From Escherichia phage EK010, in the sequence record NC_070981.1: DNA of 64,000 nucleotides, one strand, 5' to 3'. A program made the translations under genes and the position numbers. How positions within the stretch are numbered: the stretch's first letter is position 1; each line of letters begins with the position of its first letter. This document shows, in pieces, positions 20,990 to 38,160 of this stretch. The notes under the pieces are model-generated. The model saw only the letters and a list, made by a program, of their open reading frames with translations, made no database searches and was not told the origin of the DNA.

Positions 20990-21000
20990 GAGGTATAGTT

Positions 21001-21436: not shown

Positions 21437-21438
21437 AA

Positions 21439-22674
21439 ATGACTACTCGTATCCGTGTTCTTCCGTATGGCCCTTCTGATTCTGTTAACGCTCTGGTAAC
21501 TGCCATTAACGATACTATCCGTGATGAACGTATCAACGCTAACATAATGGGTCTTCTTTCAGAGAACAGTCGCTGGCGTTCTCGTGAGGGTGATGTGGTT
21601 GTGAACTACGGGAACCGTCGCTATCCTGAATCCTTCTTTGGTTCTGCAACTGTCCTTAACCGTACCGCAGCCTTACATATGGCAGCGAACAAACGTCGTG
21701 CTTTCAGCGTGATGGACCAAGCAGGTGTTAAAACTGTTGAGTATACAGATGTTCAAGAGATTGCTCAGGAGTGGTCAAACTCTGGCAACATTGTGTATGA
21801 ACGTCATGAACTGACTGGTCACTCTGGTTCGGGTATCGTTGTTGTTGAGCCTCGTGATTCAATTGGTCAAGCTGAACTGTACACCAAAGGTATTCAAGGT
21901 CCACGTCGTGAATGGCGTGTCCATGTGTTCAAAGGTGTTATCACCTATGTTCAGAAGAAGATTCGTCGTAACGGCTATCGTGAAGACCCTAACTATCGTG
22001 AAGATGTTCGTAACCATCACACTGGTTGGGTTTACTCAAGTTCCTTCACAGACGCTCCAAATGATGCATCTCTGATCAACGCAGTGAAAGCTGTTGAATC
22101 AATGGGTCTGGATTTCGGTGCAGTTGATATCATCACCAAAGGTCAAGAAGCGTGGGTACTGGAAGTTAATACAGCACCGGGCCTGACTGGTACAACTCTG
22201 GATACCTACCGTCATAACATTCTTGAGTTTGTTAAAGCTCAAAACCCTCTCTATACCCCTCAGTATAAAGTGGTTTACCAGACTCCGATTGAAGATGGAG
22301 ACGGTGAGTTGGTGGATGATATTGAAAGTGCTGATGATGAAAACTTTGCACTGGAAGGACAAGTAGCACAGCCGATTGATTCAGTTGATGTGGTTCCTGA
22401 AGAAATGCAACTGGAAGGTCAGATGAATACTCAAACTATTCGTAATGCACCTACTGGCTACACTTTGTCTCGTGGCTACTGGATTGCAAATATCCGTCAT
22501 GTCCACAACAACCTGCAACCGAATGCAATGTCTGCCAATGTCATCCTGTTCTGTGATGGTCGTAACTTCTACCGCAGTGGTTGGAACGTTCCGGTCAATC
22601 CAGTCCAGATTCATAACCCTCGCAAGTTAGAGTCTGTCAATGTTGAAGGTAGCGAAGTAGCAGTAACTCTGTAA
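21439..22674 (+). CDS. ATP-grasp family ligase
   Basis: GHSGSGIVVV, EWRVHVF, WVLEVNTAPGLTG motifs. Confidence 0.7.
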   Translation: MTTRIRVLPYGPSDSVNALVTAINDTIRDERINANIMGLLSENSRWRSREGDVVVNYGNRRYPESFFGSATVLNRTAALHMAANKRRAFSVMDQAGVKTVEYTDVQEIAQEWSNSGNIVYERHELTGHSGSGIVVVEPRDSIGQAELYTKGIQGPRREWRVHVFKGVITYVQKKIRRNGYREDPNYREDVRNHHTGWVYSSSFTDAPNDASLINAVKAVESMGLDFGAVDIITKGQEAWVLEVNTAPGLTGTTLDTYRHNILEFVKAQNPLYTPQYKVVYQTPIEDGDGELVDDIESADDENFALEGQVAQPIDSVDVVPEEMQLEGQMNTQTIRNAPTGYTLSRGYWIANIRHVHNNLQPNAMSANVILFCDGRNFYRSGWNVPVNPVQIHNPRKLESVNVEGSEVAVTL

Positions 22675-22705
22675 TTAAATTAAATTAAACAAAAAGGAAT
22701 TTGTA

Positions 22706-22948
22706 ATGTTGTCTATCGAAGATTTGATCAGCCGTGGAATGACCGAAGAAAAAGAGCCTCTGATTGTAGGCTCTCGTAAAGCTATCAACCAACTCTGTGA
22801 AGAGTTCGGAATCACAAATAAGAGAATGATTGGTAATCAGTTCTCTGCAATCATCACCTTCCTCAAACGAGGTGATAAATATTCAATGGAATGTGCTGAG
22901 CGTATCATCGCAATTGCACAAGCAGATAAGGGAGTAACAAATCTATGA
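22706..22948 (+). CDS. hypothetical protein (80 aa)
   Basis: Track ORF. Confidence 0.5.
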   Translation: MLSIEDLISRGMTEEKEPLIVGSRKAINQLCEEFGITNKRMIGNQFSAIITFLKRGDKYSMECAERIIAIAQADKGVTNL

Positions 22949-23130
22949 ATAAATACACAATCATGTTTCGTACAATGTCAGCAGAAGGAAATATTCAATC
23001 TCTGGACATTCAAGCAGATCGCTTTGAATCACTTGGAACAAGTGTTAACTTCTTCCGAGGTACAGAGCTAGTGGGTACATTCCAATCTGATGTGTTGACT
23101 GGTGTGATCAAACACTTCGAAGTAGAATAA
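22945..23130 (+). CDS. hypothetical protein (61 aa)
   Basis: Track ORF. Confidence 0.45.
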   Translation: MNKYTIMFRTMSAEGNIQSLDIQADRFESLGTSVNFFRGTELVGTFQSDVLTGVIKHFEVE

Positions 23131-23189
23131 TTTGCTTTAGCCTCTTCGAAAGAGGGGGCTAGTTCGAATTTAGCTTACAAAGGAGTTTT

Positions 23190-23726
23190 ATGGAATGGAG
23201 AGAACTTCCCGGATATGAGGGACAGTATTCAATCTCTGATAAAGGGGATATCCGTAGTAATTACCGATGGTATCTTAACCCTAAGACACTAACACGCCAT
23301 AAGAAAGATCGTGAATTGATTATGACACCCAATGTTGGTTCAGCGGGTTATGCTCGAATCAAATTAAGTGATCAGATTTTTCATCCGTATCACAGATTGG
23401 TAGCTATTGTTTGGGTAAGCAATCCAGAAAACAAACCTTTCATCAACCATAAAGATGGAAACAAACTGAACAACAACCCTTCTAATCTAGAATGGGTTAC
23501 TTGTCAGGAAAACAATATACATGCATATCAGACAGGTTTAAACTCTGGTATGCTAAGAGCAGAAACCCTTTCACATGTGTGGAATTTTATATCTCCCGAA
23601 GGGGTTCAAACCGAAATCACTAACCTTTGTAAATATTGTAGAGAGAATGATTTATCTAAGTCCTCTATGATAGCAGTACACAAAGGAACTCAATATCAAC
23701 ATAAGGGTTGGAAAAGAAATGAGTAA
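23190..23726 (+). CDS. HNH homing endonuclease (NUMOD4-like N-terminus)
   Basis: WRELPGYEGQYSISDKGDIRS and NHKDGNKLNNNPSNLEWVTCQENNIHA motifs. Confidence 0.8.
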   Translation: MEWRELPGYEGQYSISDKGDIRSNYRWYLNPKTLTRHKKDRELIMTPNVGSAGYARIKLSDQIFHPYHRLVAIVWVSNPENKPFINHKDGNKLNNNPSNLEWVTCQENNIHAYQTGLNSGMLRAETLSHVWNFISPEGVQTEITNLCKYCRENDLSKSSMIAVHKGTQYQHKGWKRNE

Positions 23727-24153
23727 TGAGAAAGTTTTAGTAGCAACTTACGGCAGCTTGAGAAAAGGTCAACACAACCACGCTATCAATGCTCGTGCAG
23801 GTGGTGTGTCTATCGGTGAAGGGTGGACAGTAAACAACTGTAACCTGTATCAGTATTGCACAGCATACTTCCCAAGTGTATCTCTGGTGCATAACAGCAA
23901 TGGTAAGCCTGTTCGTGTAGAGGTCTTTGAGACAACCCAAGCTGGTCTGGAAGGCCCATATGACGGTCTGGAAGGTCACCGTGGCAATGATAACCCATAC
24001 ACCTTTTACAAACGTACATTGATCCCAGTATTATTGGACAGTGGTGAAACTGTGGAAGCGTGGATTTACCATATTGACGAAGAACAAGATGTTCTTGTTG
24101 AATCTGGTGACTGGACAGCATATCTGGCAGGTGAGAAGGATGACAGTAACTGA
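23719..24153 (+). CDS. gamma-glutamyl cyclotransferase (AIG2/GGCT)-like protein
   Basis: N-terminal VATYGSLRKG motif. Confidence 0.65.
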   Translation: MSNEKVLVATYGSLRKGQHNHAINARAGGVSIGEGWTVNNCNLYQYCTAYFPSVSLVHNSNGKPVRVEVFETTQAGLEGPYDGLEGHRGNDNPYTFYKRTLIPVLLDSGETVEAWIYHIDEEQDVLVESGDWTAYLAGEKDDSN

Positions 24154-24381: not shown

Positions 24382-26172
24382 ATGTCAAAGATCATTTTGG
24401 GAGACACAGGCTGTAAAGAGTGTATCTCTCATGGTCGTGATAAGACCCGCAATCACATGATTCTCTTCCGAAATGAAGAGTCCGGTGAGGAGTGGGGTTC
24501 ATGTAACAGATGTGGTGCGTATGAAATCTTCGAGAAAGGAACGACGCCCACTCCTAATGAAAAGAAAGAGCTGTCCCCTGAAGAACTCCGAGAAGTCTTA
24601 GACGATTGCTTAGAGCTTCCTCAGGGAGAGTTGACTCGTCGCTTAATTCCTAAAGCTGTATCTGAACGTTATGGATGCCGTATCGGTTTAAGCCAAACAG
24701 ATGGTCAAACTCCTGACAGCTACTTCTTCCCTCGTGAACGTGATGGGAACATTGTTGGATATGAAGTAAAACTTCTAGACAGCAAGAAGTTCTATTATGT
24801 AGGTAATGTGAAAGAAGCCGACTTGTTTGGTATGGCTCAAGCACAACGTGGTGACGTATACAACAAGAAACTCTTCATCTTTGAAGATCCTCTCTCTTGT
24901 ATGTCTGGGTTCCACGTACTTACCGCGTTTACAAACGCAACTAACATCAAACCTGCTTGCGTCTCTCTTCCGTTCGGTGCAGGTTCAATCTCTTCTGTAT
25001 TATCAAGAAACCGTGATTTTATTAATGGTTTCGAGGAGATTGTACTCTGCATGGACAATGATGATGCAGGTGAGATTGCTTTAACTAAGGGTCGTTCTCT
25101 GTACCCGCATGTTAAGTTTGCAAGGATTCCAAAAGGTACGTTCACTTATAACGGACAAGAAAAGGAAATCAAAGATGCAAACGACATGTTACTTGCAGGG
25201 AGAGGTCAAGAGCTTTTCAACAATCTGAAATATTCAGCTAAGCGGGAATCTCCTGCTGGAGCTGTTACAGTTTTTGATTGCCTCGAAGATGCTCTGAAGA
25301 AAGCGGAATGGGGTATCCCTTATCCGTGGAAAACTCTCAATGACATGACCTTTGGTATTCGTTGGGGAGAGATGGTTGCAATCGGTGGTGGTGTTGGTTC
25401 AGGTAAAACCTTAATCGCACATGAACTGGTAGCATGGCTTTGCCTTGAGCACGGTTTTAATGGTGGTGGCTTCTTCTTGGAAGAGAAGGTAGGCATGTCT
25501 GTTAAGAACATTGCAGGTAAATCCGCATCCATCCCATTCCACCGACCAGATGTTGAGTATGAAGAAAGTCAGCTACGAGATGAAGCACTTCGATACGCTG
25601 ATAAGTTTTTCTTGTACGACAACTTTGGGCAGAATGAGTGGGAAGACATTAAGCAGTGTATTCGCTTTTGGGTAGTTGAGAATCAGTGTAAATTTATCAT
25701 TCTTGATAACATCACTGCATTGGTATCTCACTTAACTCCGTCTGAGGTAAATACAGAAATCAGCAAGATTGCTTCAGAGCTTGCTGGTATGTGTAAGGAA
25801 CTGGACTTCACTGCTTTTGTGTTATCTCACTTGAATGCTCCGGCGGGCGGTGCCCCTCACGAAGAAGGTGGTCAGGTTAAAGAAGTACAGTTTACTGGCT
25901 CACGTTCATTAATGCGCTGGTGTCAATGTATTATCGGTTTCGAACGTAATAAACAAGCGGATGGGTTAGGTAAAAACTTGTCAATCATACGTCTGCTCAA
26001 AGAACGTAACTACGGACAGACAGGGGTTTGCTATACCAAATACATTAACGAAACAGGTCGTCTTGTGGAACGAGAAGATCATGAAGTTGATGAAGATAAT
26101 CCGTTTACAGTCACCAATGGAGAAGATGCAGCTTCCTTACTTTCACAAGAAGGGGAGGCACGTCCATGGTAA
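24382..26172 (+). CDS. DNA primase/helicase (T7 gp4-like)
   Basis: N-terminal Cys4 zinc ribbon, Walker [10 protein letters not shown], Walker B FIILDNIT. Confidence 0.85.
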
Positions 26173-26714
26173 AGAAACTGTATGCGTTTGATATTGAAGG
26201 TGATAACCTCTATGACGGTATTCAGAATGTCTGGTGTATATGGATATTTGATGTACTGTCTGGAGAACGGTGGGGGTATCGCCCTCACCAAATTGAAGAA
26301 GCACTACACAAACTGAAAGAAGCTGATGTAGTAATAGGTCACAATATTATTGATTTTGACCTTCCTGCTTTGTTTAAATTCTACTCTCATGTGATACCTT
26401 TTCGTTTTAATGTCTTTGATACCCTGTGCCTGAGTCGATACCTCAAGCCTGATCGTATTGGTGACAGTCCAGAATACCCCAAAGGCGACCCTAGACATGG
26501 ACCTCGCGGTCATGGCCTCAAGCAATGGGGCGAATTTCTGGGAGAGCTGAAGGGTGATTATGGCGAACAGGAAGAAGCATGGGATGCATTCACTGAAGAC
26601 ATGTTCACATATTGTGAGCAAGACGTTAACTTGACAGTTAAGGTTTACATGTGTCTTTGTCAAATGGCAGGATTTGATTATAAGAATCCCCCATCTCTCA
26701 ACTGGAAAATGTAG
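26166..26714 (+). CDS. DnaQ-like 3'-5' exonuclease (separately encoded proofreading domain)
   Basis: Exo I FDIEGD, Exo [13 protein letters not shown], Exo [11 protein letters not shown]. Confidence 0.8.
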
Positions 26715-26716
26715 AA

Positions 26717-28177
26717 ATGATTAAGATTCCATTATCTGAATTGAACCTTCAAGAAGGAGAAGCCCTCAGTGTAGGGCTTGACCTGATTCGTAATTTGATC
26801 AGAGATAACGTAGTCCCTGATGGTATCTATCCTGTTATTGCAGGTGGTGCTATCCGTGATACGTTCTTCCAAAATCGAACTCCGAATGATGTTGATATCT
26901 TCCTAGTTCAAGGAGGGCTTCGTTGGAACACTCGCCAGGAAAATAGCCCTGCTAACGTAGGTAATGCTGCACTGTTCCTTGACAACTTCTTATCTTGGAC
27001 AGAAAGTAAGGGGCTTCAGGTTACATCTCGCCTAGTTCAGCCTGTTAACGGGACAACCTATGCTGAAGCGCTTTTCACTTTCCAAGAGATTCTGGAAATT
27101 GAGATTGATCAAGTGAAGATTCAGATGATGATTAATCTCCCTCTGGATATGGATACTTTGAGTCGTCGCTTTCCTATGATCTGTCAAGGGTTTATGACTC
27201 TTGGTGATTTGTATGTGTCAAACGAAGGTTTGTTTGCAATGTCATACACTCGTGACATTCCTGTGGTATCTAGTCGTGAAATGAAGTATGTTCACAAGAA
27301 GTGGCCTGAAGCAACTGTTGCAGTTTATAGCAGTTCTACCGAATATATGCACCTTGCAATGGGAGCTTTCGGTGAGCCAGAAGTTCACCTGATTAGTGAT
27401 TTAGTTGGACCTATGGCTGGTGTAAATTTATATCAGAATCAGCGTCGTCATTATACCCTGAAGATGATGGAAACTATATTAAACATTCCTCAGGAAAGGG
27501 GTCGTAGCTATCTGGACGAGGAAGTTAACCTACAGACAGAATGGTCTAGTGGATTAACCACTATAGGTGCTGAAGCAATTACGCAGCCTTGGACTCCGGG
27601 AACTAACAGACGAGATCTTCAAGCTTTTAATGAAGAAACTTCTCGAACTGTTCGAGGAGGTGTTGTAGGGTATAACGTACAACCTCATGAAAGACCTCGT
27701 GACACTTTTACTGGCAGTTTTGGTAGTGCACACTCTTCTGGAATGGATACTCGTACATGGCATGTCCAAGGAGGAACTGCTCGTCCTATTCCTTCTCCGT
27801 CAATGGATGATTTGCAGCGTTCTCGTCGTTCATGGGAAACAGTAAGCTCTGTTGTTCAGGGTCTACGTGCTAGTGATGTAGAACGTGTAGAAGTTGGCGA
27901 TGTGCTGGAAGATGGATTGCTGGCGATAGCGGCTCGTGAAGCTGCTCGTACTGGCTTTGCATCTTTAGCTAATGATGCTAACGAAGCTCCTCGCCCTCGC
28001 CGTCGTAGCGGTTTAGCTCACTCTAACACTGAACTAGGTTCAGAACTCCGATCTGCTGCTCGTGAGCTATCTGGTGAGCTTCACAACAACCTAGCAGGTG
28101 TTACACTATCTCGTGAAACAGCTCGTAATATGATTAATAATTTGGCATCATCTGTACAAGGAAACAGAAACTCATGA
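26717..28177 (+). CDS. Pol-beta superfamily nucleotidyltransferase (tRNA-NT/poly(A) polymerase head-like) with R/S-rich C-terminal tail
   Basis: IAGGAIRDTFF...DVDIF matches GGxVRD...DxD head motif. Confidence 0.5.
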   Translation: MIKIPLSELNLQEGEALSVGLDLIRNLIRDNVVPDGIYPVIAGGAIRDTFFQNRTPNDVDIFLVQGGLRWNTRQENSPANVGNAALFLDNFLSWTESKGLQVTSRLVQPVNGTTYAEALFTFQEILEIEIDQVKIQMMINLPLDMDTLSRRFPMICQGFMTLGDLYVSNEGLFAMSYTRDIPVVSSREMKYVHKKWPEATVAVYSSSTEYMHLAMGAFGEPEVHLISDLVGPMAGVNLYQNQRRHYTLKMMETILNIPQERGRSYLDEEVNLQTEWSSGLTTIGAEAITQPWTPGTNRRDLQAFNEETSRTVRGGVVGYNVQPHERPRDTFTGSFGSAHSSGMDTRTWHVQGGTARPIPSPSMDDLQRSRRSWETVSSVVQGLRASDVERVEVGDVLEDGLLAIAAREAARTGFASLANDANEAPRPRRRSGLAHSNTELGSELRSAARELSGELHNNLAGVTLSRETARNMINNLASSVQGNRNS

Positions 28178-28707
28178 GTCTTTTAGGTTCTCAAGAATTA
28201 CACAGCGTTATTGATAGTGGCTTTTTAGATGCGGAGCATAAATATGTTAACGCTGCTAGTGTGGATATCCGTATTGGTGATACTATCCTTGTTGAAGAAC
28301 AGGCTGATGGTATTGTTGACATTGATGCTAAAGAAAACCTCAAGTGGAAAGAAGTGAAAATCCCTGAAGATGGCATTGTCATTACTCCGGGACAGTTCTT
28401 CTTAGCTCACTCTATGGAAGAATTTAACCTTCCAGATAACATCTCAAGCCTGTTTGTACTCCGCTCCTCGATGGCTCGTTGTGGTTTGAACCACCTACAT
28501 GCTGGTTGGGCTGATGCAGGGTTTAACAGCAGTAAGCTAACCTTTGAGTTCCATAACGTTACCCACAATCACAGCTTACGAGTTCGTGCTGGGATGCGTG
28601 TTGGTCAAATGGTTATGTTTGAACACTCTCACGCTGGTGATGATTCCTATGCAGTGAAGGGTCGTTACAATGGCAGCAATGGTGTAGTTGCTTCTAAAGG
28701 TGTATAA
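28174..28707 (+). CDS. dcd: dCTP deaminase family protein
   Basis: SSMARCGL...GWADAGF...LTFEFHN motifs of dCTP deaminase/dUTPase fold. Confidence 0.8.
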   Translation: MSLLGSQELHSVIDSGFLDAEHKYVNAASVDIRIGDTILVEEQADGIVDIDAKENLKWKEVKIPEDGIVITPGQFFLAHSMEEFNLPDNISSLFVLRSSMARCGLNHLHAGWADAGFNSSKLTFEFHNVTHNHSLRVRAGMRVGQMVMFEHSHAGDDSYAVKGRYNGSNGVVASKGV

Positions 28708-28923
28708 TTGATGGAGTTTGGAACAATGAAAAGACGTTGGGTAGTTCGTGTTCACTGGAGCAGTGGTGCAGAGTCAATGGGTATTAGAAACACCCGTCAA
28801 GAAGCTCGCGCTCATAAGAAGTTCTTGTTAAGTTGTGAAAGCACAATTAATAAGATCACTATCCACAAAGCTCAAGACTTTAAATCAGGTCGTTTCTATA
28901 TCAGCGGAAAGGTACATTACTAA
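28708..28923 (+). CDS. small protein, paralog family B (WxVxVxW ... TRQEAR ... KVHY)
   Basis: Track ORF; 4 paralogs in window. Confidence 0.5.
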   Translation: MMEFGTMKRRWVVRVHWSSGAESMGIRNTRQEARAHKKFLLSCESTINKITIHKAQDFKSGRFYISGKVHY

Positions 28924-29129
28924 TGGCTAGATTATGGGCAGTTCGCGTTAAATGGGCTAACAAAGACCTTGGTGGTGATTGTATTAAATTATTCGACACT
29001 CGACAAGAAGCTCGTCTTGCTAAGAAAGCTACAAAAGCTTTAGGTCTCGCTGAAAAAGTAGAGATTCATCGTTGGTTTCAAAATGACAATAACAGTGCAG
29101 GATCCTTGACTAGCAAGGTTCATTACTAG
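28923..29129 (+). CDS. small protein, paralog family B
   Basis: Track ORF. Confidence 0.5.
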   Translation: MARLWAVRVKWANKDLGGDCIKLFDTRQEARLAKKATKALGLAEKVEIHRWFQNDNNSAGSLTSKVHY

Positions 29130-29153
29130 TTGGTAGTAGATATGATAACTCTC

Positions 29154-29162
29154 AAATGTATA
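29154..29162 (+). promoter_or_regulatory. AAATGTATA motif (8/9 match to recurring TAATGTATA element)
   Basis: ~38 nt upstream of ATG 29200. Confidence 0.3.
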
Positions 29163-29199
29163 TACAGTATAAGAATATTGTATGAAACAGGAGAGAGTT

Positions 29200-29529
29200 A
29201 TGTTAGATTTGAGTAAAGTGGCCCCGCCATCTGAAGAGATTAGCAAAGCTAAAGTTATGCAGCAGTTCTATCATCGGGATATGCTTGGTCGTTATATCAA
29301 GAATCGTGATGTTGTTGCATGGTCTATTGGAAATCAAGGTTATCTTCTCAAAGTGTTGCAAGTTACTGGCTCAACAGCCAAGCGAGTCAAAGTCTATGAC
29401 CCTGAAATGGGGCGTTCTAAATCAGTAGACCCTCAGAATTGCATTGTTATCACACAACAGGTCATGGATAACATTGCTCGTAATGTAGCTAATTCAACTA
29501 ACTTAGAAGGGGATGCACCTAATGCATAA
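29200..29529 (+). CDS. hypothetical protein
   Basis: ATG with CAGGAGAGAG SD inside track ORF 29182-29529. Confidence 0.5.
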   Translation: MLDLSKVAPPSEEISKAKVMQQFYHRDMLGRYIKNRDVVAWSIGNQGYLLKVLQVTGSTAKRVKVYDPEMGRSKSVDPQNCIVITQQVMDNIARNVANSTNLEGDAPNA

Positions 29530-30088
29530 TAATGTCTTCGACTTACCTGAACTAACACGAGTGGGTTCTAGCAACCCATTCTCTACTACTGACTCTTCTA
29601 TTTCTCGTCTTGAGGGAATGAATAAACTGATTAGTGGTAACAGCTTAGAACACATCTTATGTGATGTGCAAGCTAACCTTGAACTTCTACACATCAAAGC
29701 AAAGAACTACCACTGGAACGTCTCTGGAGCTGGTTTCCAAGGTGTTCATGGTATGTTCGATGAACTAGAAGATTATGCTCGTGAGGCAGGCGACCGAATA
29801 GCAGAGCGTATGCGCTTCCATTGTGTTAAGGTGGATGCCACTGCCAGTAACTATTTAGGTCACGCTTGGTTCCGAGAAGGTAACGCTGATCTCGACATGG
29901 ACGGTATGCTTTCCGACATGTGCATGACTCTTATGTGTATCATTGAGAAGATGGATGAGTTTGATTCAGACTTGTGCACCTATCCAGTGGACCAGAGTAT
30001 GCTTCAAGAAATTAATGAAGGTCTTGGCAAGTTCTGTTACTTCGTCAAGAGCAACATGTCCCACTCCAGTGGTGATGTGTCTTACTAA
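29513..30088 (+). CDS. Dps-like ferritin-fold protein
   Basis: KNYHWNVSGAGFQGVHGMFDELEDYAREAGDRIAERM matches Dps ferroxidase-site region. Confidence 0.7.
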   Translation: MHLMHNNVFDLPELTRVGSSNPFSTTDSSISRLEGMNKLISGNSLEHILCDVQANLELLHIKAKNYHWNVSGAGFQGVHGMFDELEDYAREAGDRIAERMRFHCVKVDATASNYLGHAWFREGNADLDMDGMLSDMCMTLMCIIEKMDEFDSDLCTYPVDQSMLQEINEGLGKFCYFVKSNMSHSSGDVSY

Positions 30089-30152
30089 TCAAACCTCCGC
30101 CCTGTCTCGTTTGTTCAAGAGGTGGGGCGAACTTTTTTATAAGGATGTGAAT

Positions 30153-30332
30153 ATGTTTTCAGCAATCGTATGGTCTGTGTGGGCAATTCTTGTTGGCGGT
30201 ATCGTTTATCTGGCTCAGAAGCAGATGCTTAAAGAGAATCCGAATGATGCTAAAGCCATTAAACATGGCAGCATTGCTCTGGTAGTCTTCTCTGTTGTTA
30301 TTCCTTTCCTTCTTCACCTATGGACTGCATAA
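30153..30332 (+). CDS. small membrane protein (2 TM)
   Basis: ATG with AAGGA SD inside track ORF 29943-30332. Confidence 0.45.
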   Translation: MFSAIVWSVWAILVGGIVYLAQKQMLKENPNDAKAIKHGSIALVVFSVVIPFLLHLWTA

Positions 30333-30508
30333 TGAAATTAAACCTCCCTGAAGAGCTACAAGCACATGCTATTATTGTTAGTGGCTGTGTAATGGGTCTT
30401 GGTCAGACGAAGAAGATTGCCCATGATTTAGCAAAAGGGCAGTATAAATCTTTTATTGTTGTTCCTGCTACCCAACGTCATATCAATCTGTTTATTAACA
30501 AGGAATAG
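30332..30508 (+). CDS. hypothetical small protein
   Basis: TAATG overlap with upstream stop; track ORF 30320-30508. Confidence 0.4.
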   Translation: MKLNLPEELQAHAIIVSGCVMGLGQTKKIAHDLAKGQYKSFIVVPATQRHINLFINKE

Positions 30509-30509
30509 A

Positions 30510-30785
30510 ATGAGTAAAGTGATTAAGTTTTATAGTAACTCCTGTGCTCCGTGTGCAGCTATGGCTCCTGTGTTTAAGAAGGTTGTGGCTGACTATAACG
30601 TTGAAGTTGAAGAGGTAAACATCTCTGAAGGTGATGGTCGAGAGCGGGCCATTGAGTATGGTGTTCGCAGTATCCCAGCCTTCATAGTCCCTGATAATAA
30701 CAGTGGTGCTCACTATAGTTTGTCAGGTATGCAAACTGAATCTAATCTCCGTGCATTTTTAGACACGGCTCTGAAAGGTAAGTAA
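30510..30785 (+). CDS. thioredoxin-like protein (CxxC active site)
   Basis: FYSNSCAPCAAMAPVF; ATG with AAGGAA SD inside track ORF 30456-30785. Confidence 0.7.
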   Translation: MSKVIKFYSNSCAPCAAMAPVFKKVVADYNVEVEEVNISEGDGRERAIEYGVRSIPAFIVPDNNSGAHYSLSGMQTESNLRAFLDTALKGK

Positions 30786-30786
30786 T

Positions 30787-30999
30787 ATGTCCGAATGTAA
30801 ATGGGCTTTACAAGTAAATTGGGGTGGTAATAGAAGTGACATTGCCGCCACTATCTCGTTACAACGAACCCGTGAAGCTGCTCGTACACTTCGTCGTATG
30901 TTTATCAGTGGTGGTCAGAAACCATGTGATGTTAAAATCTACAAAGTTAAACATACCAACGGTGTTATGCAAATTGACACCAACGTAAATTATCGCTGA
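30787..30999 (+). CDS. small protein, paralog family B
   Basis: Track ORF. Confidence 0.5.
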   Translation: MSECKWALQVNWGGNRSDIAATISLQRTREAARTLRRMFISGGQKPCDVKIYKVKHTNGVMQIDTNVNYR

Positions 31000-31006
31000 G
31001 GCAGAT

Positions 31007-31222
31007 ATGGAAAAGAAACCTTGGGTTACTTTTTGGGTAGTTAAGTGGTTTAATTTTGATAGTACAATCCCTAGCTTCTCAACATACTCCACACGGAAAG
31101 AGGCTCGTCGGTTTAAGCGAGCTTTAAAAATTGCTAATACCGGTGCTTCTAAGATTACAATCCAGAAAGGGATTGAAACAGAAAGCGGAAGCAACATGGT
31201 TTATAAAAAGATTCACTATTAA
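31007..31222 (+). CDS. small protein, paralog family B
   Basis: Track ORF. Confidence 0.5.
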   Translation: MEKKPWVTFWVVKWFNFDSTIPSFSTYSTRKEARRFKRALKIANTGASKITIQKGIETESGSNMVYKKIHY

Positions 31223-31229
31223 GGAAGAA

Positions 31230-31697
31230 ATGATACAAGACGACTTGGAATACAACCCTAAGACTGGAGACTTCTTCTGGAAGAACACAAAAGGTCGAAG
31301 GGTTAAAGGAAATCAAGCTGGGTATGTATCTTCTCTAGGTTATCGTTACATTGAGCATGAAGGGAAAAGCTACAGAGCTTGTCGCCTTGCTTGGTTCTTT
31401 GTTCATGGAAAGTTTCCTGAGTTTGAAATTGACCACATCGACCAGAACAAACTTAATGACTCAATTGATAACCTAAGAGATGTGAATCCATCTACTAACT
31501 GCCATAACAGAAGGCAGTACGATGTTGATAACAAGATAGGAAATCTTCCTAGAGGTGTGTATCTTCGTAAGACAGCTTCTGGTGATAAATATCGAGCCAT
31601 TATCGGCGTCAAAGGTAAGAATATATACTTAGGGACTTTTGCTTCTTGTGAAGAGGCAGAAGAAGTTTACAACAAGGAGAAGTTGAAGTATGTCTGA
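31230..31697 (+). CDS. HNH homing endonuclease with AP2-like DNA-binding domain
   Basis: EIDHIDQNKLNDSIDNLRDVNPSTNCHNRR; paralog of 42035 gene. Confidence 0.8.
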   Translation: MIQDDLEYNPKTGDFFWKNTKGRRVKGNQAGYVSSLGYRYIEHEGKSYRACRLAWFFVHGKFPEFEIDHIDQNKLNDSIDNLRDVNPSTNCHNRRQYDVDNKIGNLPRGVYLRKTASGDKYRAIIGVKGKNIYLGTFASCEEAEEVYNKEKLKYV

Positions 31698-32340
31698 TTT
31701 TTTAAAAGCAACACTGGTAGAGCACATGGGTTCCGACAAATCTGTGGTCAATGCAGCAAGGGTTTCCTTTGGTGTGACACGAGATGGTGATCTGAACGAA
31801 CGTGACGAGCGGTTGATTAAATTCTTAGCTCGGGAACGTCATGTGACTCCTTTTCGACACCCTCAAATCACCTTTCGGTGTAAGGCTCCCATTGCAATTG
31901 CTAGACAACTCAATAAACACCAAGTTGGATTCTCATGGAACGAAATGTCCCGGCGGTATAAAGATGGAGCAGTTGAACTCTTCATCCCTAAAGAGATTTT
32001 TGAAAGACCTTCGGACCTCCATGCAGGTGCGGGGAATCTCCTTACCACAGGAGCACAAAACTCTGCACTAGTTCTGATTAATCGGGCATACGAAACAGCT
32101 CTTGAGTCGTATGATGAATTGATTAAGTTTATCGCTCCAGAGCAAGCTCGATTTGTTCTACCTCAAGGTATGATCACGGAGTGGGTGTGGACAGGTTCTT
32201 TATATGGCTGGTCAGAGTTATGTCGTCAGCGACTGTCCGACCATGCTCAGTATGAAGTACGAGTGTTCGCATCAACGGTCGATGAAGAGCTTCGTAAACT
32301 TTTCCCAATCTCATGGGATGCACTACGTGAAGCCCACTAA
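31690..32340 (+). CDS. thyX: ThyX-family (flavin-dependent thymidylate synthase) homolog with divergent active-site motif
   Basis: Aligns along its length with ThyX (AARVSF...TPF.H...KAPI..ARQ...S.NE.S.RY) but canonical RHR is K-H-Q here. Confidence 0.75.
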   Translation: MSDFLKATLVEHMGSDKSVVNAARVSFGVTRDGDLNERDERLIKFLARERHVTPFRHPQITFRCKAPIAIARQLNKHQVGFSWNEMSRRYKDGAVELFIPKEIFERPSDLHAGAGNLLTTGAQNSALVLINRAYETALESYDELIKFIAPEQARFVLPQGMITEWVWTGSLYGWSELCRQRLSDHAQYEVRVFASTVDEELRKLFPISWDALREAH

Positions 32341-32347
32341 AGTATGT

Positions 32348-32378
32348 AGCTTCTGTCAAAAGCAGAAGCTTCTTATCA
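32348..32378 (+). terminator. intrinsic terminator
   Basis: AGCTTCTG/CAGAAGCT perfect 8-bp stem, T-rich tail. Confidence 0.6.
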
Positions 32379-32511
32379 ATTTCAAGCTGAACGAGGAAAC
32401 AGGTTTGGGTCATGCTTTTTGTCATGATTGCAGGCACTACCTTGAACAGAAGCAACACATAAACTGGTTGCATTACTACCATCCAACAACATTCAAATTT
32501 AAGGTTGTTAA

Positions 32512-32715
32512 ATGAGAACATTGTGGACTCTTGACTGTCAAGATGATGAAGGAGAGCGTTGGACTTGGAAATATTTCCTAGATAAACCAACACCTGATAA
32601 CCCTGCTTTAGATTTTACTTCATATGAAGATGCTAAGAAGTTAGTAAACGGAGAAAAGGTTTGGTCTCCGGATGATGAAGTTCAATACTTTTTAACAGAA
32701 CGGAAATTTTCATAA
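32512..32715 (+). CDS. hypothetical protein (67 aa)
   Basis: Track ORF. Confidence 0.5.
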   Translation: MRTLWTLDCQDDEGERWTWKYFLDKPTPDNPALDFTSYEDAKKLVNGEKVWSPDDEVQYFLTERKFS

Positions 32716-33035
32716 TGATTGACAGTAATACATTTAGGACTGGTAACGGAAACGAGATTAGTCCTGCTGAAGTGATTAAACGACACAGAACGCAGATGCT
32801 TATCCATTCCTATCTGTATTATTGGTTGGATGACCCAATCTGGTCTGATGACAAATGGCAACAAGTGGCTGATGACTTAACCACTTTGCAAGAGATGTAT
32901 CCTGAGCCTATCGGATTCTTTGATTCAGAGTTCAATGGATGGAATGGCTCCACTGGTATGCATCTTCCTCATGACGAGCGTATAGCTTGTATGGCTACTG
33001 AAGTATACCGTTTACATAAGGACAAATCAATCTGA
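32715..33035 (+). CDS. hypothetical protein (106 aa)
   Basis: Track ORF. Confidence 0.5.
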   Translation: MIDSNTFRTGNGNEISPAEVIKRHRTQMLIHSYLYYWLDDPIWSDDKWQQVADDLTTLQEMYPEPIGFFDSEFNGWNGSTGMHLPHDERIACMATEVYRLHKDKSI

Positions 33036-33213
33036 AATGTTTTAAATGTGAATCAACTCTTCTCCATTTGGACTCGAAAGTAATACGGGAGCTTGCCAAA
33101 GGCTCCCCGACTAAAGGGAAGAATAAGAAGTTTGTCGAAATTAAGGTTATAGGTATCCATTGCTCAGAGTGTAAATCCTGTAGCTTCTTATATGAAGAAC
33201 ACGGAGGTAGGAA

Positions 33214-33951
33214 ATGAGTCGTAGAGAATCTCGGAAAGCATCACGGAGAGAATTACGTCGTGAAGCTCTCGTCACCAAGAAAGGAAAGCGGGAATTTGAA
33301 GAAGTAGTTCTTGCTAAGCCGGTAGTACCTCAGAACCAATTCCAGAGTGAGCTGCTTAATGCAATTAAAACCAAACAGGTTGTATTCACAGATGCTCCTG
33401 CTGGTTGTGGTAAGACCTTCGTAATCACTTCTACAGTGATTGATGCTCTGAAGAGTGGGAAGATTGAGAAGATTATCCTAAGCCGACCTGCTGTTGGTAT
33501 GGGTAATAGTCTTGGATTACTTCCCGGTGGACTTCGTGAGAAGTTTGAACCATACCTAATGCCAATCGTTGATGTTATTACTCAGCGCTACGGTAAAGGT
33601 TTCTACGAATGTCAAGTAGGTAATGGTAATATTGAGTTCGTACCTCTGGAATATCTACGTGGTCGCTCGTTCAACGATGCTATCGTGATTGTTGATGAGT
33701 TCCAGAACACTACTCCTGATGAAGCATATTCAATCATGACACGTCTTGGTGAAACCTCTCAGATGTTCTGCATGGGGGACACTAACCAGCACGACATGCG
33801 TGGTGAGAGCGGTCTTGATTGGGCTACTGATTTCATCTACCGTCACCAGTTATTTGAATTTGCCGCTCTAGTAGATGGCGAATCAGATGATATTGTTCGT
33901 TCAGGTTTCTGTAAAGCTATTGTTAAAGCAATGGAATCTGAAAAATCATAA
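33214..33951 (+). CDS. phoH: PhoH-like ATPase
   Basis: Walker A APAGCGKTF, Walker B-like IVIVDEFQN. Confidence 0.8.
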   Translation: MSRRESRKASRRELRREALVTKKGKREFEEVVLAKPVVPQNQFQSELLNAIKTKQVVFTDAPAGCGKTFVITSTVIDALKSGKIEKIILSRPAVGMGNSLGLLPGGLREKFEPYLMPIVDVITQRYGKGFYECQVGNGNIEFVPLEYLRGRSFNDAIVIVDEFQNTTPDEAYSIMTRLGETSQMFCMGDTNQHDMRGESGLDWATDFIYRHQLFEFAALVDGESDDIVRSGFCKAIVKAMESEKS

Positions 33952-33954
33952 ACA

Positions 33955-33963
33955 TAATGTATA
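33955..33963 (+). promoter_or_regulatory. TAATGTATA motif, candidate phage-sigma promoter element
   Basis: Exact 9-mer 33 nt upstream of ATG 33996. Confidence 0.4.
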
Positions 33964-33995
33964 CTCCTTAGTGTACACTGATATATTAAGGAGTT

Positions 33996-34319
33996 ATGAT
34001 GACCGATAAGGCGAAACGTGATTATGCACAAGAACGAAGAACTGCAATCGCAAGGGGTGAAACCGGCGTTGGTAGCAAGAGCGGAGATGCTCAGCGCCAC
34101 CGTGCACGTCGCATCGTTGAAAAGCGCGATGGAAAAGCTGCTGTCCGAGGTAAAGATGTTGGACATAAACGATCAATCAAGTCGGGAGGTTCTAATGCGT
34201 CAAGTAACTTACGTGTTGAATCAGTCTCTCGAAATCGCTCGAACGGCGGCAAAAGTGGAGATCGTGCTGGAAAATCAGCAGGAGGAGTCAAATCGAGAAA
34301 AGGCGCTCTAAGTCAATGA
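33996..34319 (+). CDS. highly basic Gly/Arg/Lys-rich protein
   Basis: Track ORF with AAGGAG SD; chosen over overlapping frame 34018-34311. Confidence 0.5.
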   Translation: MMTDKAKRDYAQERRTAIARGETGVGSKSGDAQRHRARRIVEKRDGKAAVRGKDVGHKRSIKSGGSNASSNLRVESVSRNRSNGGKSGDRAGKSAGGVKSRKGALSQ

Positions 34320-34810
34320 TTCCGATTTCCGACTACTTGTCATACGACCCGGATACTGGTTTATTGATTTTTACCGAATCTAGCTCTAAAGGTAAGAAAT
34401 GGAATAAATCACATCCGGGAAAAGTGGCAGGGGCTGTTGATGAAAAAGGATATATCAGAGTTTACTTTGAAGGGAGGAGATGGAAAGCTCACAGACTTAT
34501 AGCTTCTGTGCTCATACCTAACCCTGAAAATAAACCACAAATTAACCACATCAATGGTAACAAAAGTGATAATAGGTTAGAGAACCTAGAGTGGGTCACT
34601 GGTCATGAAAATATACAACATGCTTTTTCAACAGGTCTTAATGTTGGTAAAGAGAGGGATGCTAATGGAATGACTAAAATCAACACATTGGATGTGGAGA
34701 AGATCAAGAGTTTATATGTTAAAGGCTCTACCACTCACGGAACAAGAGCACTAGGTAAGATGTTTGGCGTAAGTCACACAGCTATCCGACATGCTTTAAG
34801 CTCAAGTTAA
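34316..34810 (+). CDS. HNH homing endonuclease
   Basis: INHINGNKSDNRLENLEWVTGHENIQHA. Confidence 0.8.
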   Translation: MIPISDYLSYDPDTGLLIFTESSSKGKKWNKSHPGKVAGAVDEKGYIRVYFEGRRWKAHRLIASVLIPNPENKPQINHINGNKSDNRLENLEWVTGHENIQHAFSTGLNVGKERDANGMTKINTLDVEKIKSLYVKGSTTHGTRALGKMFGVSHTAIRHALSSS

Positions 34811-34814
34811 TATA

Positions 34815-34845
34815 AGGCTACCCATTTCGGGTGGCCTTTTCTTTT
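34815..34845 (+). terminator. intrinsic terminator
   Basis: 9-bp stem AGGCTACCC/GGGTGGCCT (one G-U), TTTTCTTTT. Confidence 0.65.
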
Positions 34846-34866
34846 ATGTAACCTAAGGTAATAAAT

Positions 34867-35118
34867 ATGTCTAAAGTAACTTACATCACTGTAACTGATT
34901 TCCTCCCTTCTCTGAACACAACTGAGAGCTATACTTTTCCTGTAGAAAATGTTACAAGCTCTGTTGAGATGATTCAGTTTAACAAAACAACAGCTCGTAC
35001 TAATGTAGCCCTTCGTGGTCCTGATGGCAAGTTCATCTCCTTCCGTGATAAGGCTGTTCCTAAGTGTATTGCTAAGTCTATTGAAAATCTGAAACCTTTC
35101 CCTAACTTTGGTGCATAA
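34867..35118 (+). CDS. small protein, tandem paralog pair C (KTTARTNV ... DGKF ... NLKPFP)
   Basis: Track ORF. Confidence 0.55.
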   Translation: MSKVTYITVTDFLPSLNTTESYTFPVENVTSSVEMIQFNKTTARTNVALRGPDGKFISFRDKAVPKCIAKSIENLKPFPNFGA

Positions 35119-35377
35119 TATGAAGATTAGCTTAATCCAAATTCGTGATCATCTCTTTAATGGTGACGCTCAGACTCATGACTACAAGGTTAATCAAGGA
35201 CAACACCCTACCAACCATCTTATTGGAGGGATTTCTTTATTGCCTAATAAAACAGCACGGACTAATGTAATGATTCGTGGTAAGGATGGTAAATTCCTCT
35301 CTTATCGTGATCCTGAAATCTGTGCTGATGTTCGTACAGCCATGAACAACCTAAAACCATTCCCGACAGTGGAGTAA
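35108..35377 (+). CDS. small protein, tandem paralog pair C
   Basis: Track ORF. Confidence 0.55.
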   Translation: MVHNMKISLIQIRDHLFNGDAQTHDYKVNQGQHPTNHLIGGISLLPNKTARTNVMIRGKDGKFLSYRDPEICADVRTAMNNLKPFPTVE

Positions 35378-35380
35378 GTT

Positions 35381-35734
35381 ATGCCAGTACCTCAACGCCT
35401 AGAACGTCACTGCGTTCTCAAATGGGATAATATTCATGATAACCTCTCTATTCAAGAGTTTCGTCAGTTTATCGAATTGACAGCGAAGATTAACCGAAAC
35501 CAACCAGCTCGAAACTTTGTGGTGGTTAGTGATAAGTATCCAGAGCTGTATGAGCAGGTGTGGGGGATGAAACTAGCACAGGTTCAGAGGAATAGTAATG
35601 AACGGAGAGAAGCTCGTAGACAGCGAGCAGAAGATGTTCCAGCAGTCTTTTATGTGGATGAATTGGCTGATTCATATGAAGCTTTAGATATTGTTGAAGA
35701 CAACCAAGCATTCACAGATTTAATATACCAATAA
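35381..35734 (+). CDS. hypothetical protein (117 aa)
   Basis: Track ORF. Confidence 0.55.
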   Translation: MPVPQRLERHCVLKWDNIHDNLSIQEFRQFIELTAKINRNQPARNFVVVSDKYPELYEQVWGMKLAQVQRNSNERREARRQRAEDVPAVFYVDELADSYEALDIVEDNQAFTDLIYQ

Positions 35735-35747
35735 CTATAAGGAGTGG

Positions 35748-37595
35748 GTGATGGATAACCCTGATAAGTTACCTTTCATAACGGAGATGACAGTCGCTGA
35801 TATAATCTCAAAACAAGCGAAGCATGGAGTCAACTTCAACAGAAGAAACGCTCGGTGGTTTGTTCACCTTCTCAAAGAGATTATTGTCAATATTGATAAA
35901 GAACTGATTCCTCTCCTCCCCAAAATGCGGGTGGATGGTTCAACTTATGCTAAGCCTTTTAAGAAATCAGGTGCTTTACAGAAGTGGCCTCAACTCTATT
36001 GTGATAGGGTTGGTCTTAAAAGAGAAGATATCGGTGGGGCGTTTACTTGCGTTGAGTATGTAGACTTTGACCCATCAAAAGATGCACGTATCAAAGAAGC
36101 CTTGATGGATGAAGGTTTTATACCTCCAGAGTGGAATTATTCTAAGAAACCTTGGAATACTTTTGAAATTCGTAAAGCTATGAAGAAGTATGGTACATAC
36201 TCTGCATGGTATTCTGCTTGGATTCGAGGTAACGCTAAAGAGAAACAGACAGCAGAGATGATAGATGCTGATATCCGAAGGTTTTTGGATAAGCACTTCC
36301 GTTATCACACTGTCAACTATATGAAAGCCTATGTCAGCGGTTTAGGTCTTAACCCTAACAGGAAGAAGCCTGTAACCTTTGATGAAATCAAAAAAGCTTT
36401 GGCTACATCAAACAAGTGGCCTACAGCCCCTACAAACCTTGAGGAGACTCTTGAAGAGGGGCTTGGGGGTGAGCTAGGGGGTGTAGGAAGTTTGCTTAAG
36501 AGACGCGTTGTAGCGGCTCACAGGCTAGGTTTGATTAGCGGGCTTATCGACAAGGAACGTAAAGATGGTAAGTTGTCCGCCGAAGCTAATAGCTGCGCTA
36601 CTCCGACATTTCGTTTTAAACATCGCATTGTTGTTAATATTCCTTCTCGCGGTTTGTTTGGTCACGAGTGCCGCAGTCTTTTTCAATCTGACTATTCCTC
36701 AGACGATAGTCATAACCATCCTTTCATCATTACCAACCATATCCCTGATGGGTGTTACGTACGAAAGGGTACTAACATTATCTACGAAATGGGAAAACCG
36801 GGCAAGAAAGACAAACCAATAGGTGCTTATAAATTTTATGTACCTGCTGGTCGTGAAATCTTCTTAGGTTACGATGGCTCTGGTCTTGAGCTGAGGATGC
36901 TTGCTCATTACCTTATCAAAGAATGTCGTGAGATGCTCGCTGAAGCAGAGCAGGAAAACAACCCAGCTAAGAAACGAGAAGCTGAACGCGGTCTAGCTTC
37001 TGCTGTTATGTACAGAGATATTCTTTTAGAAGGAGATATTCACTCACACAACCAAAAACTTGCTGGCCTTCCTACTCGTGATAATGCTAAAACGTTTATC
37101 TACGCATTCAACTACGGAGCTGGTGACGCTAAGTTAGGAAGCATCGTAGGTGGTGGCTCTGATGAAGGGGCTGTCATGAGGGCAAGATTCTTAGCAGAGA
37201 ATCCTTGTATTGCAATTCTTATTGAACGTATGACAGAGAAAGCACAAAGTGGATACATCTACGGTGTGGATGGACGTCGTATTACAATGAGAAGGGATGC
37301 AACTGGAAAGGTTATGGTTCATAAAGCCTTAAACACCCTCTTACAGAGCGCTGGGGCGATTGTTATGAAGTATGCAATGCTATTCCTTAATAAATGGATT
37401 GAGCGTGATGGTGTTCGTTGTGCGAAGGTTATTGACATGCATGATGAAGGCCAGTTCACTGTACATCGTGACGATGTTAACAAACTTCGTACCCTCACTG
37501 AAGAGTGTGTTCGTAAAGCAGGTGAATACCTCAAAATGGAATGTCCTCTTGCATCTGATTGTAAGATTGGGTTAAACTGGAATCACACTCACTAA
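35748..37595 (+). CDS. family-A DNA polymerase, polymerase domain
   Basis: Motif A DGSGLELRMLAHY, motif B KTFIYAFNYGAG, motif C VIDMHDEGQF. Confidence 0.9.
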   Translation: MMDNPDKLPFITEMTVADIISKQAKHGVNFNRRNARWFVHLLKEIIVNIDKELIPLLPKMRVDGSTYAKPFKKSGALQKWPQLYCDRVGLKREDIGGAFTCVEYVDFDPSKDARIKEALMDEGFIPPEWNYSKKPWNTFEIRKAMKKYGTYSAWYSAWIRGNAKEKQTAEMIDADIRRFLDKHFRYHTVNYMKAYVSGLGLNPNRKKPVTFDEIKKALATSNKWPTAPTNLEETLEEGLGGELGGVGSLLKRRVVAAHRLGLISGLIDKERKDGKLSAEANSCATPTFRFKHRIVVNIPSRGLFGHECRSLFQSDYSSDDSHNHPFIITNHIPDGCYVRKGTNIIYEMGKPGKKDKPIGAYKFYVPAGREIFLGYDGSGLELRMLAHYLIKECREMLAEAEQENNPAKKREAERGLASAVMYRDILLEGDIHSHNQKLAGLPTRDNAKTFIYAFNYGAGDAKLGSIVGGGSDEGAVMRARFLAENPCIAILIERMTEKAQSGYIYGVDGRRITMRRDATGKVMVHKALNTLLQSAGAIVMKYAMLFLNKWIERDGVRCAKVIDMHDEGQFTVHRDDVNKLRTLTEECVRKAGEYLKMECPLASDCKIGLNWNHTH

Positions 37596-37612
37596 TTTGT
37601 AGTGGAGGAATA

Positions 37613-37804
37613 ATGACTAGACACGTACATGAAACATGGGCCATTACGGGAGCAAAAGATGCAATTGTTTGCTGTAATGGACATTTCTGCATCTATAACA
37701 CAGAAAGAAAAGCTATTCAAGAAGCGGCTGAGTTAATGGAAGAGTTTCCTGATAAAGATTTCTCTATTAAGAATCTAACCATCAACCTTCCGTGGAAGAG
37801 CTGA
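37613..37804 (+). CDS. hypothetical protein (63 aa)
   Basis: Track ORF. Confidence 0.5.
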   Translation: MTRHVHETWAITGAKDAIVCCNGHFCIYNTERKAIQEAAELMEEFPDKDFSIKNLTINLPWKS

Positions 37805-37819
37805 ATCATATTACGAAAT

Positions 37820-37847
37820 GAACTAGTCTTATTGATTAGTTCTTTTT
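37820..37847 (+). terminator. intrinsic terminator
   Basis: GAACTA/TAGTTC stem, TTTTT. Confidence 0.5.
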
Positions 37848-37861
37848 AAGGAGACAAGGAA

Positions 37862-37996
37862 ATGGAAGAAGTAAAAAGTTCTGAATGGTGCTTGAAGCAA
37901 CAAAAACTCGCACAGGAAGAAGGACGTTTTGATGATGCCAAAGTGTATGGGGAGCTTTTTCATACATGGGTTGAACGAGAGGAGAAAGATCAATGA
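37862..37996 (+). CDS. possible small protein (44 aa)
   Basis: ATG with AAGGAGACAAGG SD; below track cut-off. Confidence 0.35.
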   Translation: MEEVKSSEWCLKQQKLAQEEGRFDDAKVYGELFHTWVEREEKDQ

Positions 37997-38160
37997 TGGA
38001 TTTGATTCGTAAACCTGCTCCAAAATGGAATGTATATTTCCAAGATGCTACAGGAAAATTTCACAACCAACTGGTTTATTCTGATGAAGAACGCGATGAA
38101 GTCGCTGCTCAGATTAAAGCGGATGGTGGTACAGTTCTCAAAATTTATGAAAGGGAGTAA
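37993..38160 (+). CDS. possible small protein (55 aa)
   Basis: ATGA-coupled to previous ORF; below track cut-off. Confidence 0.35.
   Translation: MMDLIRKPAPKWNVYFQDATGKFHNQLVYSDEERDEVAAQIKADGGTVLKIYERE

Follow-up and report, generated by a model that had tools for sequence, protein, structure and literature searches.

Separate genes for the exonuclease and polymerase parts of a T7-type DNA polymerase in an Escherichia phage of the Kuravirus group

Results and discussion

This study deals with the family A DNA polymerase encoded in a 64,000 nt stretch of DNA from Escherichia phage EK010 (NC_070981.1), which is here called the window and to which all coordinates refer. In this window an open reading frame (ORF) for a 3'-5' exonuclease of 182 amino acids (aa) is located at 26166–26714 and the ORF for the polymerase proper at 35751–37595, both on the plus strand and separated by 9,036 bp from the stop of the first to the start of the second. 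A first-pass annotation, made from the sequence, had described the two as separate genes about 9 kb apart, with nucleotide-metabolism genes, two HNH endonucleases and a thioredoxin-like gene with a CxxC motif between them. Both ORFs are found where they had been placed, domain and fold matches agree with their assignment, and all of the interval genes named were matched by Pfam. In a megablast search, positions 26000–38000 proved 100% identical along their full length to Escherichia phage E20-1 (OP293233.1), of which the window is the reverse complement, and 16 phage records covered at least 80% of this query. The group of E20-1 is Kuravirus in the Gordonclarkvirinae, that is, phiEco32-like podophages of the C3 morphotype. 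The polymerase of phiEco32 and of Kuravirus, with its separate 3'-5' and 5'-3' exonuclease genes, is the same system as the one in the window, and there is no substantive difference.

The two polymerase genes

The exonuclease ORF is preceded by the Shine-Dalgarno sequence AAGGGGAGG, and its start overlaps the stop codon of a primase/helicase gene (ATGGTAA; sequence 26161–26172). Because this overlap follows a strong Shine-Dalgarno sequence, we regard the two genes as translationally coupled. The match of the ORF to PF01612 is a marginal pass (24.2 bits at a cut-off of 23.6); PHROG 403, 'DNA polymerase exonuclease subunit', is matched with E 3e-37. Among solved structures its only sequence relatives are chains of T7 gp5 (gp5 residues 4–142, E 4e-8). 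The AlphaFold (AF2) model has a predicted local distance difference test score (pLDDT) of 91.9, and its fold matches 1 to 27 in the PDB are all T7 gp5 (E 1e-10, template modelling score, TM, 0.70–0.74), the best matches other than gp5 being weaker by at least five orders of magnitude. The patterns of Exo I (DxE), Exo II (NxxxD) and Exo III (YxxxD) are all present, and D9 and E11 (Exo I), N60 and D65 (Exo II) as well as Y149 and D153 (Exo III) are kept in 18 out of 18 homologues, down to 35% identity. The C-terminus consists of the gp5 linker including a conserved 'PP', corresponding to 'YFPPEIDF' in gp5. We regard the 182-aa protein as a DEDDy exonuclease of the T7 polymerase type and not as a member of an unrelated exonuclease family; judged by sequence and model, it is predicted to be a stand-alone subunit, homologous to the exonuclease domain of gp5, that proofreads together with the polymerase.

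The polymerase ORF matches PF00476 with 86.2 bits (cut-off 34.3) and PHROG 17 with E 9e-83. No exonuclease family of Pfam was matched by it, so that the formal domain search leaves the reading as a split polymerase standing. The first-pass annotation had given this ORF as 35748–37595 with 615 aa. The ORF is confirmed; its start has to be shifted, since the ATG at 35751 (614 aa), with AAGGAG 6 nt upstream, is a likelier start than the GTG at 35748 and is also supported by GenBank and by a 99%-identical homologue of 614 aa (P0037). Motif A (D376), motif B (R444, K448 and Y452) and motif C (H565-D566-E567) are kept in all of the 38 polymerase homologues compared, and they align to D475 (A), K522/Y526 (B) and D654 (C) of gp5, with the motif B tyrosine at the position of Y526 in T7. 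For the AF2 model (pLDDT 88.8) T7 gp5 is the top match in the PDB (E 1e-25, TM 0.59); Bst, Klenow and Taq/KlenTaq trail at E about 5e-16. The protein, a homologue of the gp5 polymerase domain devoid of an exonuclease domain, has an insertion of ~50 aa in the thumb (at ~57–110) and three extra insertions relative to gp5 at about residues 135–265, 310–370 and 392–420. A degenerate exonuclease domain in its long N-terminal part was considered and rejected; the extra length is made up of these three thumb/palm insertions. Just upstream of the polymerase, at 35381–35734, there is a conserved gene, possibly for an accessory subunit, that has no similarity to the gene upstream of the Bruynoghevirus polymerase.

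The two ORFs code for the exonuclease and the polymerase domain of a single family A polymerase. When placed on PHROG 17, a profile of the full-length polymerase, the exonuclease covers positions 670–826 and the polymerase 837–1233; in the alignment their concatenation is collinear with T7 gp5, residue 1 of the polymerase aligning to gp5 residue ~204, and the break falls into the interdomain linker. Between them, two intact, conserved and separately translated genes provide every part of a proofreading polymerase of the T7 type. T7 gp5, the closest solved structure for both halves, is a single chain, unlike the two chains here. We propose that a replicative family A polymerase of the T7 type is made as two polypeptides, the 182-aa DEDDy exonuclease and the 614-aa polymerase, and that these may come together, without a covalent bond, as a proofreading holoenzyme in a T7-like replisome. 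In E. coli Pol III, too, the replicative polymerase is served by a DEDD proofreading exonuclease on a separate polypeptide. The likeness to its alpha and epsilon subunits is one of analogy only, as family C polymerases are unrelated and their two-subunit arrangement arose independently.

The genomic context supports a T7-like replisome by a gp4-like primase/helicase whose acidic tail has Trp as its last residue and by a separately encoded 5'-3' exonuclease. The former (24382–26172, plus strand; annotated as primase/helicase) matches DnaB_C and Toprim_2, and its tail (26080–26172) ends with '...EGEARPW', thus being acidic with a terminal aromatic residue. It resembles in this respect the C-terminal tail of T7 gp4, which likewise is acidic, ends in an aromatic residue and docks on gp5. 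The latter (44284–45105, plus strand), a candidate for the role of T7 gp6, is annotated as exonuclease (ORF30; see also PMC9965538); it matches PF02739 with E 1e-5 and 25.5 bits, below the cut-off of 34.3 bits.

Distribution and age of the split

All 36 word-indexed homologues of the exonuclease have between 105 and 208 aa, and 35 of them are in the stand-alone range of 163–208 aa. The best 120 homologues of the polymerase measure 369–618 aa, a length at which none of them could accommodate an exonuclease domain; 'DNA polymerase part II' of the LUZ24/PaP3/tf group is among them, at about 40% identity. With E <= 1e-10 as the limit, an exhaustive profile search retrieved 3,099 cluster representatives; of the top 150, 44 are of stand-alone size (<=235 aa) and 77 of fused size (>=550 aa). 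All 44 stand-alone representatives start with Met, and 38 of the 44 have both the DxE and the YxxxD pattern.

The order primase/helicase, exonuclease, cargo, polymerase is kept in the phages phPSJM, A24 and 3H10_20. In the Bruynoghevirus phPSJM the exonuclease is followed by six small genes (about 2 kb) and then by the polymerase, and the Bruynoghevirus break is at the same position of the alignment as here. Upstream, phPSJM has genes for a glutamine amidotransferase, an ATP-grasp protein, a gamma-glutamyl cyclotransferase (GGCT) and the primase/helicase in the same synteny. In the window, the genes at 16294–24153 (plus strand), upstream of the primase/helicase, code for a COOH-NH2 ligase, an amidoligase, a glutamine amidotransferase, an ATP-grasp protein and a gamma-glutamyl cyclotransferase. 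As the order of amidotransferase, ATP-grasp and cyclotransferase genes is also kept in phPSJM, synteny reaches well past the replication genes. This layout recurs, with other cargo, in A24 and 3H10_20 of the Grimontviridae. A contiguous gene was found in none of the Kuravirus, Bruynoghevirus and Grimontviridae phages examined.

Judged by these comparisons, the split is ancestral to several phage families and not peculiar to the genome studied here. The break was probably inherited from a common ancestor of the Gordonclarkvirinae (phiEco32-like), the Grimontviridae and Bruynoghevirus (LUZ24-like). Since then the interval has gained cargo specific to each lineage, about 2 kb of it in Bruynoghevirus and 9 kb in the present phage, where it comprises genes of deoxynucleoside triphosphate (dNTP) metabolism and those for the thioredoxin, a Dps-like protein, PhoH, small paralogues and HNH endonucleases of the free-standing kind. 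'DNA polymerase part I' and 'part II' of LUZ24, PaP3 and tf share with the window the break point, the gene order and the thumb insertion, at a polymerase identity of about 40%; their interval differs in having only about 2 kb with 6 small genes and in lacking thioredoxin, dCTP deaminase, ThyX and PhoH.

Both the observation of the split and the interpretation of the thioredoxin have been published before. Polymerase and 3'-exonuclease were reported as separate genes for every LUZ24-group phage in 2012 (PMC3517423), which also cites Savalia et al. 2008 for a similar organisation in phiEco32. In 2023 the split was called "common to all group members" of the Kuravirus-like phages (PMC9965538), and in 2021 a T7-like coupling of the polymerase and the conserved thioredoxin was hypothesized for C3 phages (PMC7881722). 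Little is new in this respect, as the split is a textbook trait of phiEco32-like and LUZ24-like podophages that is used in their genome descriptions. The practical value left lies in the biochemistry of the detached proofreader, for which our literature search turned up no biochemical study of such an exonuclease cooperating with a T7-type polymerase, and in the real role of the phage thioredoxin. Kuraviruses are convenient for both questions because their hosts are E. coli of the K-12 type, of which trxA knockouts are available.

The phage thioredoxin and the thumb insertion

The CxxC gene noticed in the first-pass annotation is at 30510–30785 (plus strand) and codes for a thioredoxin of 91 aa with a CAPC active site, matching PF00085 with 48.2 bits (cut-off 23.5, E 1e-12). 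In OP293233.1 this gene (ORF63) is labelled 'holin', in conflict with Pfam. The residues C12-A-P-C15 and the I-P with the cis-proline are kept in 5 phage homologues. Aligned to E. coli TrxA, the protein is truncated at the N-terminus by the first 21 residues (beta1-alpha1) and reads SCAPC for WCGPC, with Lys in place of D26. A search of large databases gave 8 close relatives, too few for an analysis of covariation; instead, tblastn against phage records and the loci of related phages were used.

In T7 the thumb of gp5 carries a thioredoxin-binding domain of 76 aa (gp5 262–338), and it is at this place that the polymerase described here has its insertion of ~50 aa, which is modelled as strand-helix-strand (pLDDT 88–91) and is rich in Lys and Arg. 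A profile of polymerase residues 57–135 matches gp5 317–359 with 20.5 bits (E 2e-8, single comparison), a score reached by 0 of 200 shuffles. The part of this match that is inside the binding domain, its last ~22 residues, scores about 1 bit when taken alone, and nothing corresponds to the first ~54 residues of the domain. Compared with gp5, the insertion is about 22 residues shorter and unrelated in sequence over the first two-thirds, whereas the segment corresponding to gp5 316–338 appears to be conserved. The stretch gp5 317–359 holds most of the residues that are reported to be in contact with thioredoxin, namely E319, P325, T327, V329 and E330 (PMC5984650); at these positions the family consensus reads R/E, P, T, V and E.

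These data bear on the idea, raised in the first-pass annotation and before it in PMC7881722, that the phage thioredoxin serves as a processivity factor. Worked out in full, it would be a dedicated subunit docking on the thumb insertion as TrxA does on gp5, which would give a holoenzyme of three proteins. In favour of this idea, on the side of the polymerase, are an insertion at the right place and a contact segment that appears to be conserved. Among solved structures the polymerase is closest to T7 gp5, the profile match to gp5 317–359 spans the thioredoxin-contact residues, and E20-1 has no ribonucleotide reductase (RNR). Furthermore, the thioredoxin keeps R73, I75, P76 and G92 and is conserved in all C3-morphotype relatives examined (PMC7881722). 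These surface residues, however, are generic to thioredoxins, and the protein, besides missing the N-terminus, has Ser instead of W31, K90 and G74 and Lys instead of D26. On the side of the polymerase, recognisable similarity is limited to the last ~22 of the 76 residues of the gp5 domain, with about 1 bit of its own; the partner residue E319 is Arg here, and according to the model the insertion folds on its own. Almost the same insertion, with a length difference of 2 residues, is found in the polymerase of Bruynogheviruses, whose interval from exonuclease to polymerase holds no thioredoxin gene; of 723 tblastn matches of the thioredoxin, only 7 were from Pseudomonas phages. The presence of the insertion is therefore not tied to that of a phage thioredoxin. 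Moreover, both cysteines are strictly kept throughout the homologues, even though the role in T7 needs no redox activity (PMC5984650).

A different context is suggested by the gene neighbourhood. In A24 and 3H10_20 the thioredoxin gene is located between a dCTP/dCMP deaminase gene and a Dps-like gene, next to RNR genes, and thus belongs to a dNTP-synthesis cassette in these sister phages. The nearest thioredoxin homologues outside the clade, as found by tblastn, are from T5-like phages. From these neighbours and next-closest homologues we place the thioredoxin in a cassette for nucleotide supply or redox functions. The cyanophage Syn5, the only experimental study of a phage thioredoxin found in our literature search, has both a T7-like polymerase and a phage thioredoxin in one genome, for which the same two hypotheses exist, reductant of RNR or processivity factor; its role is only now under test. 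The Syn5 thioredoxin is redox-active (bioRxiv 10.1101/2025.10.05.680603) and is predicted not to bind the Syn5 polymerase, whereas host thioredoxins are predicted to bind. Syn5 differs from E20-1 in having an RNR of its own and a fused polymerase.

A redox role for the phage thioredoxin is more likely than a role as processivity factor, and we consider the latter, though plausible, rather doubtful. Most likely, the protein would act as a redox protein in a module for nucleotide supply or stress; if the thumb insertion binds any thioredoxin, the TrxA of the host would be an equally good candidate. It is likewise unlikely that Kuravirus-like phages have a T7-like holoenzyme of three proteins in which polymerase and detached proofreader are joined by a truncated phage thioredoxin clamping a shortened thumb insertion. 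If true, such a holoenzyme would make replication independent of the host trxA and would be the first demonstrated case of a virus-encoded thioredoxin as processivity factor.

Probable partnership of the two proteins and origin of the break

A strong terminator-like hairpin is present at 34814–34838 (plus strand; 10 bp stem with 6 GC pairs, followed by a T-run), between the interval genes and the polymerase cluster, and at the corresponding place a terminator is annotated in SU7, a close relative. It is the single structure to stand out in the hairpin scan, in which the number of terminators was not above chance; a promoter scan was uninformative, with fewer matches than in shuffled sequence. 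The hairpin suggests that exonuclease and polymerase are not co-transcribed, so that they are probably on different transcripts.

This possible terminator, together with the translational coupling of the exonuclease to the primase/helicase and not to the polymerase, could be taken to mean that the exonuclease is no partner of the polymerase but acts alone, for instance in host DNA degradation or recombination, leaving the polymerase devoid of proofreading. The weaker fold matches of the exonuclease do include the small DEDD nucleases NrnC and diDNase. Yet its 27 best fold matches and its sole sequence matches in the PDB are to the exonuclease domain of T7 gp5, the 'PP' of the gp5 linker is still at its C-terminus, and in each lineage examined it is found alongside a polymerase without exonuclease domain. 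Other exonuclease roles are covered by the separate 5'-3' exonuclease of the phage. We consider an independent role of the exonuclease to be improbable.

As a whole, we regard it as highly probable that the polymerase consists of two polypeptides, that the break in the linker is ancestral, that the cargo came later and that the thioredoxin most likely has a redox function. Some points weigh against this. Separate transcripts, as suggested by the hairpin, would be unusual for obligate partners, and the binding of exonuclease and polymerase to each other is an inference. The gp5 thioredoxin contacts P325, T327, V329 and E330 are conserved in the thumb insertion. Finally, E20-1 has no RNR of its own and nevertheless keeps a thioredoxin, so that service to a phage RNR alone becomes less likely and a role at the polymerase would still have its place.

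Concerning the origin of the break, the first-pass annotation had considered a past insertion of a mobile element. Mobile elements do enter the polymerase genes of this clade. The metagenomic Kuravirus L008 (ERZ28621247) has a group I intron (RF00028, 102 bits, 5354–5617) that interrupts its polymerase gene beside motif B, at about residue 454; the intron has no ORF of its own, is missing from E20-1 and accounts for the 'polymerase' clusters of ~450 aa (P0050–P0053). In SU7 (L002:14439–14915) an HNH gene is inserted into the 3' end of the polymerase gene, leaving 570 + 51 aa, with no Rfam intron at this site, and an intron was reported in the polymerase gene of LUZ24 (PMC3517423). These interruptions are polymorphic, recent and located inside the polymerase domain. 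In contrast, the break between exonuclease and polymerase is fixed in every relative; no presence/absence polymorphism was seen, the split being found in every homologue retrieved.

That an HNH homing endonuclease or intron recently invaded a once contiguous polymerase gene of this phage is, despite these precedents and the two HNH genes in the interval, very improbable, as Kuravirus and Bruynoghevirus share the position of the break and all homologues retrieved have it, so that it predates these lineages, the interval genes are conserved and independently translated, SU7 and L008 are split despite the absence of the HNH gene at 34316–34810, and the Rfam search of the window revealed no intron RNA. 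With the break common to three phage lineages and an HNH gene that is variable, the mobile-element claim has no support as far as a recent event is concerned. The HNH genes of the interval are later passengers and not the cause of the ancestral split; an ancient insertion of a cassette into the linker is possible.

Other genes of the interval

The genes of the interval named in this and the next paragraph are all on the plus strand. Directly after the exonuclease (stop TAG at 26712–26714, next ATG at 26717), a gene at 26717–28177 codes for a nucleotidyltransferase-like protein of 486 aa, which matches PHROG 12715 (E 6e-154) and no Pfam family. It is Kuravirus-specific cargo, as A24, 3H10_20 and phPSJM have no such gene at this position. 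Its N-terminus ('AGGAIRD...DVDIF') looks like the head motif of Pol-beta and CCA-adding enzymes, and its C-terminal ~200 aa are rich in Arg and Ser and of low complexity. It is followed by a dCTP deaminase (28174–28707; PF22769, E 1e-34) and a Dps/ferritin-like protein (29513–30088; PF00210, E 5e-8), a homologue of which has its gene close to that of the thioredoxin in A24 and 3H10_20. The Dps/ferritin-like gene is ORF66 of OP293233.1, where its label 'integrase' conflicts with Pfam.

Beyond the thioredoxin gene there is a first HNH endonuclease of the HNH_3 type (31230–31697, with 31131 or 31230 as start; PF13392), present at the same place in SU7 and L008. The thymidylate synthase ThyX (31690–32340; PF02511, E 7e-44) comes next, followed by a stand-alone Ia domain from the N-terminus of NAD-dependent ligase (32715–33035, 106 aa; PF22745, E 1e-33). 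The latter protein lacks the adenylation domain, and the label 'NAD-dependent DNA ligase' found in relatives cannot mean a complete ligase. A PhoH-like ATPase (33214–33951; PF02562, E 8e-56) and the second HNH_3 endonuclease (34316–34810; PF13392), which is variable and absent from this position in SU7 and L008, complete the series of Pfam-matched genes.

Two families of small paralogues are found as well. Four tandem copies of ~70 aa ending with '..HY' are located at 28708–28923, 28923–29129, 30787–30999 and 31007–31222; PHROG 4939 was tested on one member and the others were grouped by eye. A pair of ~85-aa proteins ending with 'NLKPFP..' is encoded at 34867–35118 and 35108–35377, with PHROG 6814 tested on one of them. 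The copy number of the small paralogues varies: compared with SU7, E20-1 has two more of them, SU7 being devoid of the two copies downstream of the thioredoxin gene, besides one additional HNH gene (34316–34810). Outside the region discussed, the window holds a tRNA gene at 10318–10392 (plus strand; Rfam RF00005, 67.5 bits).

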